DNA of 47,665 nt from an uncultured Muribaculaceae bacterium (GCA_964561805.1 CAZLQU010000002.1:1-47665), one strand, 5' to 3'; shown: positions 3,338 to 24,792, numbered from the stretch's first letter. Numbers and translations are program-made. Notes: generated by a model from the letters alone, not told the origin.

Positions 3338-3367
3338 AAAAAAATTGCAAAATATGATAAAATATAC
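3338..3367 (+). promoter_or_regulatory. 30-nt conserved promoter/operator-like element, copy 1 (upstream of the sipW operon)
   Basis: aaaaaaattgcaaaatatgataaaatatac is 25/30 identical, without gaps, to 14464..14493 upstream of the giant gene. It contains AATAT direct repeats 10 nt apart. Confidence 0.5.
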
Positions 3368-3394
3368 TATGTATAGTAGTGGGAGGAGATTTTA

Positions 3395-3928
3395 ATGAAA
3401 GCTATAGGAAACTTTTTACTAGACATTGTAATAGGAGCATGGCTTATTGCCGCTATTTTTGTAACGGTTTGTTTACTATCATATAACGATTTTAGAGTTA
3501 CAACTTTTGGTAGTACAGCGTTATTAATTATTGACGATGATTCAATGGAGCCAACTTTTAAAGAAGGTGATTTAGTCATTGTTAAAAGAAATAGCGATAA
3601 TAAGATAAATGTTGGTGATAAAGTATTCTACTATAATAGTGCAATGGACAGTAATGTATGGATTTACTTAGATGATGTTGAAGAAAAGACACCAATTACA
3701 AGGGATGAAACATCATATAAACTTGCTGGTAAAACGGTATCAGGTGAATATGTTATTGGTAAAGCAGATGGCGCCAGGGTAATGCATCATGCAGGTACTT
3801 TCCTTGGAATATTTACTTCTAGATGGGGATTTATGTTTTTAGTAATATTCCCAACATTATTTGCCATTATTTATGAAATCATGATGATTATTGATGCTAG
3901 ACGTGATATGAAACATAGTGAAATCTAG
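3395..3928 (+). CDS. sipW: SipW-like (ER/archaeal-type, S26B) signal peptidase paralogue 1, divergent
   Basis: N-terminal TM, serine box DDDSMEPTFKEGDLVIVKR, C-terminal TM. It lacks the I-T-H-R and K-G-D-N-N blocks seen in paralogues 2 and 3. Confidence 0.8.
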   Translation: MKAIGNFLLDIVIGAWLIAAIFVTVCLLSYNDFRVTTFGSTALLIIDDDSMEPTFKEGDLVIVKRNSDNKINVGDKVFYYNSAMDSNVWIYLDDVEEKTPITRDETSYKLAGKTVSGEYVIGKADGARVMHHAGTFLGIFTSRWGFMFLVIFPTLFAIIYEIMMIIDARRDMKHSEI

Positions 3929-4478
3929 TTATAAAATATTTTTAATTGGATTATTTGTTCTATTTGTAACGACATTAATTGTCGTTGAAACATATGCATT
4001 ATTTGAAACCAATAGCAATGGCGCAAAGACATTAGATATATCTGATTGGGTAATCTACGTAAATGACACAGATATTACTGAAACAAGAACGATTACTTTA
4101 AATGATTTCACTTATGTAAATGGTTCACATACAAGAGCCAATCGTTTTGCACCGGGAAGTAGTGCATATTTTGAACTAGAAATCGATGCATCAGATGCAC
4201 AAGTATCAGTTGCTTATGATTTAGAGATTGATGATTCCCAAATAGCTGATTATCCAAATATTAATTTTACAATTACCGATACTGATACCAATACAGTAAT
4301 CAATGATACTGAATATAGTGGAACAATTCTTCTTAGTGATCAAAATAGAACAAAGACTTTGAGAATTAATTTAGTATGGACTGATAATTCATTATATGAT
4401 GAATCAGATACCAGTTTAATTGGCGAGACCTTGGCATTTACAATCAATGCCCATTTTGAACAATATACTGGAGAATAA
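3918..4478 (+). CDS. Short-class TasA/CalY-like secreted protein with SipW-cognate-type signal peptide (P1)
   Basis: GTG start overlaps the sipW1 stop by 11 nt. Signal region KIFLIGLFVLFVTTLIVVETYALFETN. C-terminal motif LVWTDNSLYDESDTSL shared with P2, P4 and P5. Confidence 0.7.
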   Translation: MKSSYKIFLIGLFVLFVTTLIVVETYALFETNSNGAKTLDISDWVIYVNDTDITETRTITLNDFTYVNGSHTRANRFAPGSSAYFELEIDASDAQVSVAYDLEIDDSQIADYPNINFTITDTDTNTVINDTEYSGTILLSDQNRTKTLRINLVWTDNSLYDESDTSLIGETLAFTINAHFEQYTGE

Positions 4479-4499
4479 AAAGAGGAAGTGAGGTGTGAT

Positions 4500-23123: not shown

Positions 23124-23131
23124 GGGATAAT

Positions 23132-23254
23132 ATGGAAGAAGAATTAAAAGAAGCTACTAATCAAGAACTTATACAAATTTATCGTTTAATTAAAGAACAT
23201 TTGGAATACTTGGAAAAAGAAAAACAAAAAGTAGAGGAAAATGAAGAAAAATGA
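23132..23254 (+). CDS. 40-aa acidic helical small protein (below the ORF-track cut-off)
   Basis: RBS GAGGGA overlaps the giant gene's stop. ATG 23132. Its TGA stop overlaps the ATG of the next gene (ATGA). Sequence: MEEELKEATNQELIQIYRLIKEHLEYLEKEKQKVEENEEK. Confidence 0.5.
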   Translation: MEEELKEATNQELIQIYRLIKEHLEYLEKEKQKVEENEEK

Positions 23255-24780
23255 TTGAAGAATTAACAAGTAAATATGAAGATTTTAAAGGAGTTATCGA
23301 CATTTTACCAGTCAATACAAAATACAATCGTAAAAGAAAAATAGAGTATATTGATGAGGAAATAAATAATGATAACGGAAGACTTCTACAAGTAAAAAAA
23401 GAAATTGAAAAAAGAATTAGACAATTCGAAGGATTAAAATTAAACGATAAAATTGAAAAATTAAAACAAGAACTTGAAAAATGCAATATTGCAAATGAGT
23501 GGAATAGTTATAATACTTCATATGAGAAAATGCATCTAGATTATTATCTATATCAACTCCATCGTTATTATAAGGAAGACTTGATTAGTGTTAATGCATG
23601 CATTAAAAAAATAATTGAATCTTTTAAGAAGGTTGAAATTGAAATTAAAAAAGATGATTTTAAATTCAATGATTATGCAGCCGCTTATATGGAAAAGATA
23701 TTAAATAATGTTAGTGATGAAGAATTAAAAACTTATTTCGAAGAGATATATTGGAAAAATCCCGATATTATTAGAATTATAGAAATTAACTTTAAAAACA
23801 TATATCTAAAGTATGAAAAGAAAATTGATAAGTATTATGCGTCACGTCATCAAGCATTTTTGAAAAAGCATAAGGATGAAGAAATATATGATATGCGCGT
23901 TAAATTAAGTTCACAAATCAAAATATTGGATGGTAGAGATACATATTTAAACTTCCAAAGATTTGTTAATAATGAATACTCTGTTATGGATTTTAAAGAA
24001 GATGATATTAACAAGAAAAAGGAACAATATTTTGATGATAATAGCTATAATTATAGTAATTTATTGGAAGTTAATAAAGTATTAAATGAATATAATATAA
24101 TGATCAAGTATCGTGATATATTTACTGATATGAGAGAACGCTTAGAAAAGAAAGAAGAATTAAAGAATTCTAAGAGTAATGCTTTAAAGGAAATAGCGAA
24201 AGAAGAAGATAAGTTAATTAAATTAAATGCTAAGCGCAATAAGAAAGTTTTATTTGGCAAAAAGAAAAATAATGAGAAATGGGTATTTGAATATAGAGAA
24301 TCATTAAATAATATTATTAAGTTTTATGATGAATTTGATAATGCTTGTTTCAATGATTTAGTATTTTTAAAACTGACACAGGATAGTACGGTGGCTGAAG
24401 TTTTAAAACTAGTTAGTGCCAATTATCTATATTTTGTAAGTAGAGCATTTATTAAGGATGAAAATGCTGATATAAATGAAGTTACAAAGAATTTTGAGAC
24501 GTTACGTGATTATGTTAATAATAATACTTTTGTGCTTCTTGATAATATTGCTTTACTTGATGATAAACCAATGAAACAATTAATAAGTGACAAGTATAAT
24601 TTAATGCATATTAAATTATCAACAGAATCATTACTTGATGAAAGTATGGAAAGAACAATGGGAGATATTGAGACATTGATAAAATATGAAGATATTGTTG
24701 CTTCATGGATTAATATTGACGATGTGACACTATACTTAAATTATACTGATTTAATTAATAAAGAAAAAGCTCACGAATAA
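23251..24780 (+). CDS. 509-aa cytoplasmic Lys/Glu/Asn-rich coiled-coil protein, unknown function
   Basis: Long ORF translationally coupled to the sORF. No signal peptide or TM. I recognise no family. A terminator follows. Confidence 0.75.
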   Translation: MIEELTSKYEDFKGVIDILPVNTKYNRKRKIEYIDEEINNDNGRLLQVKKEIEKRIRQFEGLKLNDKIEKLKQELEKCNIANEWNSYNTSYEKMHLDYYLYQLHRYYKEDLISVNACIKKIIESFKKVEIEIKKDDFKFNDYAAAYMEKILNNVSDEELKTYFEEIYWKNPDIIRIIEINFKNIYLKYEKKIDKYYASRHQAFLKKHKDEEIYDMRVKLSSQIKILDGRDTYLNFQRFVNNEYSVMDFKEDDINKKKEQYFDDNSYNYSNLLEVNKVLNEYNIMIKYRDIFTDMRERLEKKEELKNSKSNALKEIAKEEDKLIKLNAKRNKKVLFGKKKNNEKWVFEYRESLNNIIKFYDEFDNACFNDLVFLKLTQDSTVAEVLKLVSANYLYFVSRAFIKDENADINEVTKNFETLRDYVNNNTFVLLDNIALLDDKPMKQLISDKYNLMHIKLSTESLLDESMERTMGDIETLIKYEDIVASWINIDDVTLYLNYTDLINKEKAHE

Positions 24781-24792
24781 TGTGAGTTTTTT
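24770..24792 (+). terminator. Rho-independent terminator
   Basis: ctcac-gaataat-gtgag hairpin followed by a T-run; it overlaps the stop codon. Confidence 0.6.

Follow-up and report, generated by a model that had tools for sequence, protein, structure and literature searches.

A CoCoPALM-type locus joining SipW-type signal peptidases, candidate surface-fibre subunits and a membrane-anchored McrB-like GTPase

Bell et al. (eLife 2024, PMC11090510) gave the name CoCoPALM, in one paragraph, to a large clade of McrB-like GTPases with an NxD signature. These GTPases are fused to an FtsB-like transmembrane (TM) segment and a coiled coil and are linked to signal peptidases, and the residue after their NxD is in most cases E or another D; they were predicted to act in pilus assembly, and the full description was deferred to a forthcoming paper (PMC11090510). 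Our literature search found neither a later CoCoPALM paper nor a paper on the PADLOC candidate PDC-M26. Here, we analysed a locus in a 47,665-nucleotide stretch of DNA from an uncultured Muribaculaceae bacterium (GCA_964561805.1, CAZLQU010000002.1:1-47665; the window denotes this whole stretch). The locus is of the CoCoPALM type and is a well-resolved example of a kind that had been named and not dissected. In our view, it probably specifies a CoCoPALM-type machinery for building a cell-surface fibre or adhesin.

The locus contains 16 intact genes spanning 3395-24780, and all open reading frames (ORFs) were present at the coordinates given by an earlier interpretation of the same DNA (the sequence-only reading). 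The plus-strand order is S1, P1, S2, P2, P3, C1, C2, C3, S3, P4, in which S genes belong to the signal peptidase family. P5 lies on the minus strand, convergent with P4, and a 151-nucleotide divergent spacer then leads to P6, P7, the giant gene G and X. The ORF table also confirmed the tight packing that had been claimed, with junctions from S1 (3395) to P4 (11717) of -11 to +21 nucleotides. Pfam, NCBIfam and PADLOC scans covered every gene of the locus, and the P proteins, C1, X and G had no significant family match in them.

Apart from sequence homology to FtsB itself, the features named for CoCoPALM are present, namely an NxD-clade GTPase (C2) whose N-terminus carries a TM segment and a predicted coiled coil, an adjacent helical/coiled-coil McrC homologue of the DUF2357 type with no detected nuclease (C3), and flanking genes of the signal peptidase family. 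Bell et al. differ from the present analysis in naming no substrates. The sequence-only reading had called the system undescribed, which is not fully accurate: the association itself was named in 2024, although no detail was given there. New beyond the CoCoPALM paragraph are the P6/P7 and class-A protein families, a T-Y-A↓x-F site (the arrow marks the predicted cut), the dead peptidase S1, the accessory proteins C1 and X, and a recurrent giant protein.

SipW-dependent fibres, encoded by B. subtilis tapA-sipW-tasA, B. cereus sipW-tasA-calY and C. perfringens sipW-bsaABC, resemble the locus in their dedicated peptidase of the archaeal/endoplasmic reticulum (ER) type, their T-[YFW]-A↓x-F site with an aromatic residue at P2', their secreted, beta-rich subunits and an N-terminal segment that could serve as a donor strand. 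The model for C. perfringens BsaA offers a precedent: donor-strand exchange takes place while the subunit is still signal-anchored, SipW cleavage comes afterwards, and BsaA export is aided by type IV pilus NTPase genes (PMC11580942). The window differs in that its subunits could not be detected as TasA/Peptidase_M73 family members and in that it has two active peptidases and one dead one, at least seven predicted substrates, a GTPase pair and a giant protein; TasA systems, unlike the window, encode no NTPase of their own.

The GTPase module relates the locus to McrBC type IV restriction systems and CoCoNuTs, with which it shares a homologous GTPase core (Walker A, Walker B and Nx(x)D) and the DUF2357 domain of the stimulating partner. 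However, C2 has a membrane anchor where McrB has its DNA-binding N-terminus, no PD-(D/E)xK, HEPN or other nuclease was detected in the window module, and the module lies in an operon of exported proteins, is inherited syntenically and is largely confined to a single locus within the lineage. Type IV, Tad and archaeal pili are similar by analogy only, having a dedicated peptidase, subunits with a common N-terminal processing motif and a membrane-associated hexameric NTPase. There is no homology; the window peptidase is a Ser/His enzyme of family S26, predicted to act on the outer face and to cut past the hydrophobic helix, whereas those systems use an aspartic prepilin peptidase, and their PilB-like NTPase and PilC-like platform contrast with an McrB-like NTPase and no PilC-like protein in the window.

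Two sets of related loci were used for comparison. The lineage set (n = 83) comprised 80 loci from a scan in which each GTDB species was represented by one genome and three metagenome contigs that carry one C2 homologue; the more divergent set (n = 80) came from a metagenome scan seeded with C2 relatives found by HMMER, to which family hidden Markov models were applied. The locus combines two active signal peptidases, predicted substrates with a conserved site, and an anchored GTPase with intact nucleotide-binding motifs, and these genes are inherited together across a wide evolutionary span.

The three peptidase-family genes, S1 (3395..3928), S2 (4488..5369, with an ATG at 4500) and S3 (10553..11080), are all on the plus strand, and their products have a hydrophobic segment at both the N- and C-terminal ends. 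They matched TIGR02228, the model for archaeal/SipW-type signal peptidase I, with 41.3, 58.5 and 81.2 bits, respectively, which places S2 and S3 above the cutoff of 51.85 bits and S1 below it. All three scored well below the cutoff of the Bacillus SipW equivalog model (at most 58.8 bits versus 190). Catalytic residues were then assessed in an alignment of 184 peptidase family members from related loci. Ser and His were kept in all 35 members of the S2 family and the conserved Asp in 34 of 35; in the S3 family, Ser, His and Asp were each kept in 79 of 79, and the Gly of the GDxN box was invariant in both families. In the S1 family, the Ser position is a gap or Glu in most members, and the GDxN box is deleted; the His position is Gly or Ala, and Asp in the S1 of the window. 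Because S1 lacks Ser, His and the GDxN box, we regard it as a conserved pseudo-peptidase, a paralogue predicted to be catalytically dead beside two enzymes. Thus, of the three paralogous ER/archaeal-type peptidase genes proposed by the sequence-only reading, all belong to the TIGR02228 family, but only S2 and S3 retain the catalytic Ser, His and Asp and qualify as dedicated archaeal/ER-type (S26B, SipW-like) peptidases. S2 also carries a C-terminal tail of ~130 aa after its second TM segment, and tails of at least 60 aa were found in 20 of 48 orthologues.

A single hydrophobic segment occurs at the N-terminus of P1 to P5, of P7 and of G. In P1 to P5 and P7, the segment is followed by the motifs that had been listed for these six genes, and the motif columns are conserved across orthologues. 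The predicted sites are ETYA↓LFET in P1 (3918..4478, plus strand), FTQA↓KYES in P2 (5370..5975, plus strand, ATG at 5379), YTLA↓KYV in P3 (5979..6905, plus strand), NTFA↓WFIY in P4 (11073..11717, plus strand, ATG at 11082), DTYA↓KYVT in P5 (11720..12385, minus strand, probable start at 12316) and STYA↓WFT in P7 (13264..14406, plus strand). Orthologues read [TS]-[YFL]-[ASG]↓x-[FY], with small residues in positions -3 and -1 and an aromatic residue at +2 that hardly varies (P7, F in 58/58; P5, Y in 67/67; P4, F in 74/77); the P4 columns contain A in 75/77, W in 77/77 and F in 74/77. The [TS]-[YF]-[ASG]↓x-[FY] site predicted for the six proteins fits the -3/-1 rule with an aromatic residue at P2'.

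Profile-profile comparison with hhalign grouped the first five of these proteins, with probabilities of 99.9% for P1 and P5, 97.4% for P1 and P2, 95.9% for P2 and P3, and 96.6% for P4 and P1 (comparisons with the P4 alignment used '-M first'). By these profiles, P1, P2, P3, P4 and P5 are one superfamily of predicted secreted, beta-rich subunits, which we term class A; P3 has a class-A N-terminal domain and an extra C-terminal domain. P7, which represents a second class (class B) of predicted secreted subunits and is fast-evolving, has only its N-terminal ~50 residues in common with class A.

In P7, the residues T32, Y33, A34, W35, F36 and T37 were invariant in 41 homologues. Its N-terminus gave TIGR04088 (SipW-dependent signal peptide) as top NCBIfam match, with 14.3 bits and E 0.036, below the cutoff of 19; the other five motif-bearing proteins did not match TIGR04088. 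P6 (12537..13250, plus strand) precedes P7 in most loci, and the P6-P7 order occurs in both sets. It had been described as a membrane-anchored paralogue, and the hydrophobic anchor is indeed present; however, P6 has no cleavage motif and shares with P7 only the C-terminal W-x-E-G-x-D-x-D-C domain, to which their hhalign match (91.7%) is limited. Searches with P6 gave no Pfam or meaningful PDB match, a match to dTor being an effect of TM composition. A separate observation concerns the subunit C-termini, which all end in a conserved Trp and an acidic cluster: WIEGQDIDCEN in P7 (W349-N359, window 14308-14340), WIEGDDPDC in P6, EWKDG.GETMDNEDDT in P5 and VW....NDDETDT in P4. This cluster may be a calcium-binding or inter-subunit motif; PMC12518558 reports calcium-dependent polymerisation for archaeal cannulae, which are discussed there beside TasA-like proteins.

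We next compared the P proteins with TasA. The sequence-only reading had claimed both a SipW/TasA-type cleavage pattern and a TasA-like nature of the proteins, and only the former was upheld. Annotated TasA-family proteins of Bacillus plasmids read GGGTYA↓YFSD at the equivalent position, and an aromatic P2' residue is described in PMC10269814 as making TasA need SipW instead of a LepB-type enzyme. The P system plausibly works like the SipW/TasA system. As for homology, none of the seven P proteins of the window matched Pfam PF12389 (TasA/camelysin), and this model matched one of 122 class-A relatives (E 0.0039). Profile searches of PDB sequences with the subunit families found no TasA, nor anything meaningful for class A, including the P5 family, or for P7. 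Against an alignment of seven annotated TasA-family proteins and B. subtilis TasA, hhalign probabilities were at most 32% and were restricted to the signal region; a plasmid search confirmed that the B. subtilis TasA query belongs to the TasA family. With no significant profile match, TasA homology was rejected; the P proteins could not be detected as TasA-family members.

Fold comparison, which had been suggested as a check, gave at most weak similarity to TasA. The AlphaFold2 model of P7 (pLDDT 87.4, pTM 0.83) had no Foldseek match at E ≤1e-3 in PDB or BFVD, with template modelling (TM) scores of ~0.1. In the AlphaFold2 model of P5 (pLDDT 67), residues 87-196 form a beta-sandwich core, and residues 30-68, just past the predicted cleavage site, are disordered. 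Its Foldseek matches in the PDB were all sub-threshold; they included FimG with a donor strand (E 0.0076, TM score 0.43 on the target), the TasA fibre 8aur_A (E 0.017, probability 0.96, TM score 0.36) and the PapG and FimF pilin domains. The modelled combination of a disordered stretch and a beta-sandwich, with its weak matches to FimG, PapG and the TasA fibre, hints at a fibre.

C2 (7905..9428, plus strand) is the embedded AAA+ NTPase noted previously, and we can now identify it as an McrB-like GTPase of the NxD clade that has an McrC-like DUF2357 partner. It matched E. coli McrB in the PDB over the GTPase core (E about 2e-3) and the PADLOC candidate model PDC-M26A (3.9e-33), again over the GTPase core only. 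Its Walker A is GISGTGKT and its Walker B is LDEMN, and the signature INNDDS aligns with MNTADR of McrB. Across ten relatives that are 30-39% identical to the most divergent member (P0389), Walker A and Walker B were invariant, as were the N and the D at +2, and +3 was D, E or Q; aligned in this way, the signature is the NxD form, not NxxD. The protein consists of a conserved N-terminal peptide, a TM region at residues 50-87 followed by basic residues, a heptad-rich region at 78-121 detected by a crude scan, and the GTPase domain. Of the three proteins said to be cytoplasmic and placed among the subunits, C2 is thus not simply cytoplasmic but anchored in the membrane. The TM and heptad-rich layout, although conserved, did not yield a match to the FtsB/DivIC Pfam models at E <0.1, and no exact-sequence record was found for the C2 of the window. 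The first 16 residues of C2 (MDTFLRFLYEFLAQFF; window 7905-7955) almost equal the GTPase core in conservation and are still recognisable at 32% overall identity (M..F..FF.EF); they may be an interaction peptide at the membrane. The closest C2 relative in a plasmid collection lies in an operon with an AAA-domain protein, an AAA family ATPase and a 608-aa DUF2357 protein, which we read as CoCoNuT-like.

C3 (9438..10544, plus strand) matched PF09823 (DUF2357, the N-terminal domain of McrC) with 1.1e-10. It accompanied C2 in 83 of 83 lineage loci and 75 of 80 divergent loci and was directly downstream of C2 in every mapped locus. Pfam scans revealed no nuclease domain in C3, a cryptic inactivated fold not having been sought by structure, and longer C3 homologues (600-700 aa) contained DUF2357 alone in Pfam. 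The C-terminal part of the C3 profile matched only coiled-coil proteins in the PDB (apolipoprotein and Nop58, as composition effects), and the heptad scan flagged residues 339-368. The best PADLOC match of C3 was SIR2 (E 0.036); C1, C3 and X had none that was significant. C1 (6918..7895, plus strand) is a lineage-specific accessory protein, cytoplasmic and with no predicted TM segment, found in 71 of the 83 lineage loci versus 8 of the 80 divergent loci. X (23251..24780, plus strand) is a cytoplasmic protein of 509 aa that is heptad-rich by the scan and likewise has no TM segment; it was detected in 20 of the 83 loci and is adjacent to G in three of them (L008, L039 and L071).

G (14514..23123, plus strand) encodes a predicted surface protein of 2869 aa that begins with an anchor or signal (DTFS↓ETV); many orthologues have a T[FY]S[ED] motif after the TM segment. 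Its repeat core of ~1100 aa is rich in Gly, Thr and Asn, and 34 xYGGx motifs occur at intervals of 24-32 aa between residues 868 and 2010. The core is probably a beta-solenoid; the earlier description of a giant secreted beta-helix protein agrees with the length and the repeats, from which the fold is predicted. In the more divergent loci, a giant ORF that is not homologous to G occupies the same place, with adhesin-type domains, either BspA-type LRR (LRR_5) together with CBM_2, or GLUG. The predicted adhesin-type domains of these giant proteins are a further hint of a fibre.

C2 homologues number in the thousands; identity to the C2 of the window is 81-95% for those in 'Bacilli bacterium' metagenome-assembled genomes (MAGs) and in Clostridium sp. 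CAG:1193. The GTDB-species scan gave at least 539 confirmed stretches; among the matches listed, all were gut and rumen MAGs of uncultured bacteria labelled Bacilli, 'Tenericutes' or 'Mollicutes', and two were complete chromosomes, of 1.26 and 1.55 Mb. C2 and C3 were present in all 83 lineage loci, S3 in 82, P4 in 79, P3 in 74, P1 in 73, C1 in 71, S1 and P5 in 69 each, S2 in 64, P7 in 58 and G in 52. The order S1-[P1-S2-P2]-P3-C1-C2-C3-S3-P4-P5(-) was fixed in the 11 lineage loci mapped in full, all of which had P5 convergent on the minus strand; P6-P7, G and X lay nearby at variable positions. P3 was directly upstream of C1 in mapped lineage loci and, in L074, upstream of an ORF in the place of C1. 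The accessory P1-S2-P2 module was missing from the minimal loci L010 and L053. In L001 (a contig of the Clostridium sp. CAG:1193 type), two extra ORFs of 464 and 95 aa without a Pfam match lie between P4 and P5 (13915-15608), indicating that the locus tolerates lineage-specific additions at that junction. C2 was the most conserved gene (63-88% identical across the 83 loci), whereas the exported proteins were 22-81% identical, as expected for a cytoplasmic core and surface-exposed parts.

The full HMMER search reached full-length C2 relatives of as little as 32% identity. Loci of the divergent set ranged from 26 to 56% in G+C content, and their C2 was 39-91% identical to that of the window. Their recurrent order was P6-P7(x1-5)-S-C2-C3-S-(P7...)-giant ORF, the giant ORF being included where mapped, with tandem arrays of one to five P7 copies. 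Peptidase ORFs were found upstream of C2-C3 in 63 cases and downstream in 55, and Ser, His and Asp were kept in 44 peptidase sequences on each side. The P7-like proteins mostly had (S/T)-T-[YF]-A-W-F-like sites. Those of L153 (56% G+C) are included; it has five P7-like paralogues upstream of peptidase-C2-C3 (3295-9277) and three more small motif-bearing proteins downstream (14201-16619; e.g., CYAWFANN and GTYAAYST), indicating that the T-Y-A-W-F-type site persists far outside low-G+C Bacilli. C1 and class A were mostly limited to the lineage of the window. The recurrent order in these loci suggests that the deep core consists of P6/P7, a peptidase, the McrB-like and McrC-like proteins, a second peptidase and a giant surface protein. 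The proposal that the locus is a linked functional unit was therefore borne out by its neighbourhoods, since the same order recurs in the 83 loci and in divergent loci and the flanks differ. Chance juxtaposition or insertion into a defence island was rejected on the synteny evidence.

We propose that the apparatus works as follows. Sec would export the subunits, whose signal-anchor helix would keep them in the membrane until S2 and S3 release them by cleavage after the T-Y-A triplet. The freed N-terminal segment, disordered in the P5 model, would probably be the donor strand that joins subunits into a fibre. Uncleaved P6 would likely serve as membrane base or nucleator, the P7 class, which is tandemly amplified elsewhere, as main shaft, class A (P1-P5) as lineage-specific minor or adaptor (accessory) subunits, and G as displayed adhesin. 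On the cytoplasmic face, a C2 hexamer with C3 in its pore may hydrolyse GTP and thereby, through the TM segments and coiled coils, act as gate or timer for cleavage and assembly; S2-type peptidases possibly take part through their cytoplasmic tails.

Several points weigh against this fibre model. CoCoPALM-type loci are known from sequence alone, and the physical link between C2/C3 and the peptidases is a predicted one; the S2 tail was not flagged by the heptad scan. With a pLDDT of 67, the P5 model is of mediocre quality, and all its fold matches have E >1e-3 and TM scores <0.5. P7 has no structural relative, and therefore the term pilin is a guess from context. SipW/TasA and donor-strand fibres are not known to need an NTPase; the role of the GTPase is thus one that we infer outright. 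In addition, C2 belongs to a GTPase family that originates from defence systems, and it has a match among the PADLOC candidate models. The same parts could instead form a GTPase-controlled secretion, anchoring or surface-coat system that makes no polymeric fibre, in which the P proteins would make up an envelope layer without filaments or would carry the giant adhesin in the manner of chaperones, and C2/C3 would regulate the peptidases. Such a system would accommodate a giant protein that recurs at its position yet is not homologous between loci, a P7 fold unlike any known pilin, a P6 that remains membrane-anchored, and a conserved dead S1 that could hold substrates uncut. However, up to five tandem P7 paralogues with an invariant N-terminal motif resemble sets of major and minor pilins, and the disordered N-terminal extension of P5 and its weak similarity to donor-strand pilins also speak for subunits that polymerise; we regard the coat alternative as unlikely.

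The kinship of C2 raises the further question of an anti-phage or conflict system of the CoCoNuT/McrBC lineage, in which infection, sensed by the GTPase, would lead to the release, dependent on the peptidases, of effectors that act on membranes or remodel the surface. Other members of the McrB NxD clade of C2 are predicted defence systems, and the window supplies both the PDC-M26A match (3.9e-33) and an AbiD gene 1.3 kb upstream. Yet that match is restricted to the GTPase core and leaves C1, C3 and X unmatched, AbiD is a neighbour in one of 83 loci, and neither C2 nor C3 showed a detectable nuclease or nucleic-acid-binding domain. Over hundreds of small-genome species, C2 keeps its synteny and 63-95% identity, unlike patchy mobile defence genes, and its associated genes encode Sec-exported beta-sandwich proteins and adhesin-like giants. 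A defence function is accordingly improbable in our judgement. The SipW-type peptidases and the TasA-type cleavage motif would also be found in an ordinary SipW/TasA biofilm-matrix operon into which an McrBC-like cassette had inserted by chance, but the synteny data contradict such an insertion: C2-C3 is the most conserved part (83/83 and 75/80 loci), and peptidase genes flank it even at 39% identity to the window. Moreover, no P protein is detectable as a member of the TasA family, and we give this explanation almost no weight.

More tentatively, and as a possibility that we would not yet rely on, an McrBC-derived GTPase ring may be the cytoplasmic engine or gate of an unrecognised class of Gram-positive filaments, with two new subunit folds (P6/P7 and class A), SipW-type maturation at an invariant T-Y-A↓W-F site and interchangeable giant adhesins. 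If true, this would be a fifth bacterial pilus route beside chaperone-usher, type IV, type V and sortase, and the first NTP-dependent one to use type I signal peptidases. If the fibre or adhesin reading is right, a defence-derived GTPase has become part of a surface-assembly machine that is present in hundreds of uncultured, genome-reduced species of gut and rumen Bacilli. Because ~21 kb is a large investment in a small genome, the locus probably matters for attachment to host, mucus or partner cells. The window offers a compact example for the question left open in 2024, i.e., the job of an McrBC-like motor beside signal peptidases, and defines likely substrates, a cleavage site, a dead peptidase and a minimal conserved core, P6-P7-S-McrB-McrC-S.

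Regarding the sequence setting, the DNA has a G+C content of ~30% and is chromosomal; genes for PFK, AsnB, a CtpB-like protein and FtsK occur farther along. Within the locus, the best promoter-like site lies in the divergent intergenic region between P5 and P6 (12386-12536), at 12398-12425 on the plus strand (TTGACA-16-AATAAT, 11 of 12 positions, a consensus match only). A promoter and terminator scan of the locus gave a total number of sites not above chance; only the positions of the two best sites, upstream of S1 and upstream of P6, are suggestive.

Upstream of the locus, a 311-aa ORF rich in Asn, Tyr and Cys (122-1057) has no NCBIfam match and no hydrophobic segment. An AbiD/Abi_2-type abortive-infection gene (1149-2084; PADLOC AbiD, 3.3e-54) stands just upstream of a gene for an HtrA-like protease (2074-3288) and overlaps its start. 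Each of the two was found in one of the 83 loci, the closest relative (L004), indicating that they are not part of the locus. After the locus, 24854-29046 encodes an Hpt-like protein (a weak match, 18.4 bits), a response regulator with HD_5 and a hybrid histidine kinase. The sequence-only reading had treated this as a dedicated phosphorelay, a claim that we could not tie to the locus: homologues of the Hpt protein and the response regulator were found in 0 of 83 loci, where most flanks end inside the giant gene and are too short to decide.

Further downstream are an N-acetylmuramoyl-L-alanine amidase with four LysM repeats (29125-30315) and a PGA_cap (poly-gamma-glutamate capsule-type) protein (31919-33214), which indicate that the organism has a cell wall, although related MAGs are labelled 'Tenericutes' or 'Mycoplasma'. 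About ten ORFs follow at 33352-39302, and the four scanned with Pfam (439, 200, 202 and 184 aa) had no match at E 1e-5. Downstream of the 439-aa protein, two adjacent helical proteins of ~100 aa (35751-36059 and 36076-36387) recall, by eye, WXG100/LXG-type secretion substrates. G+C content falls to 24-27% at 36-40 kb, and a tRNA-Trp gene (40046-40119) lies at the border, suggesting that the region 33352-39302 may be a variable island.

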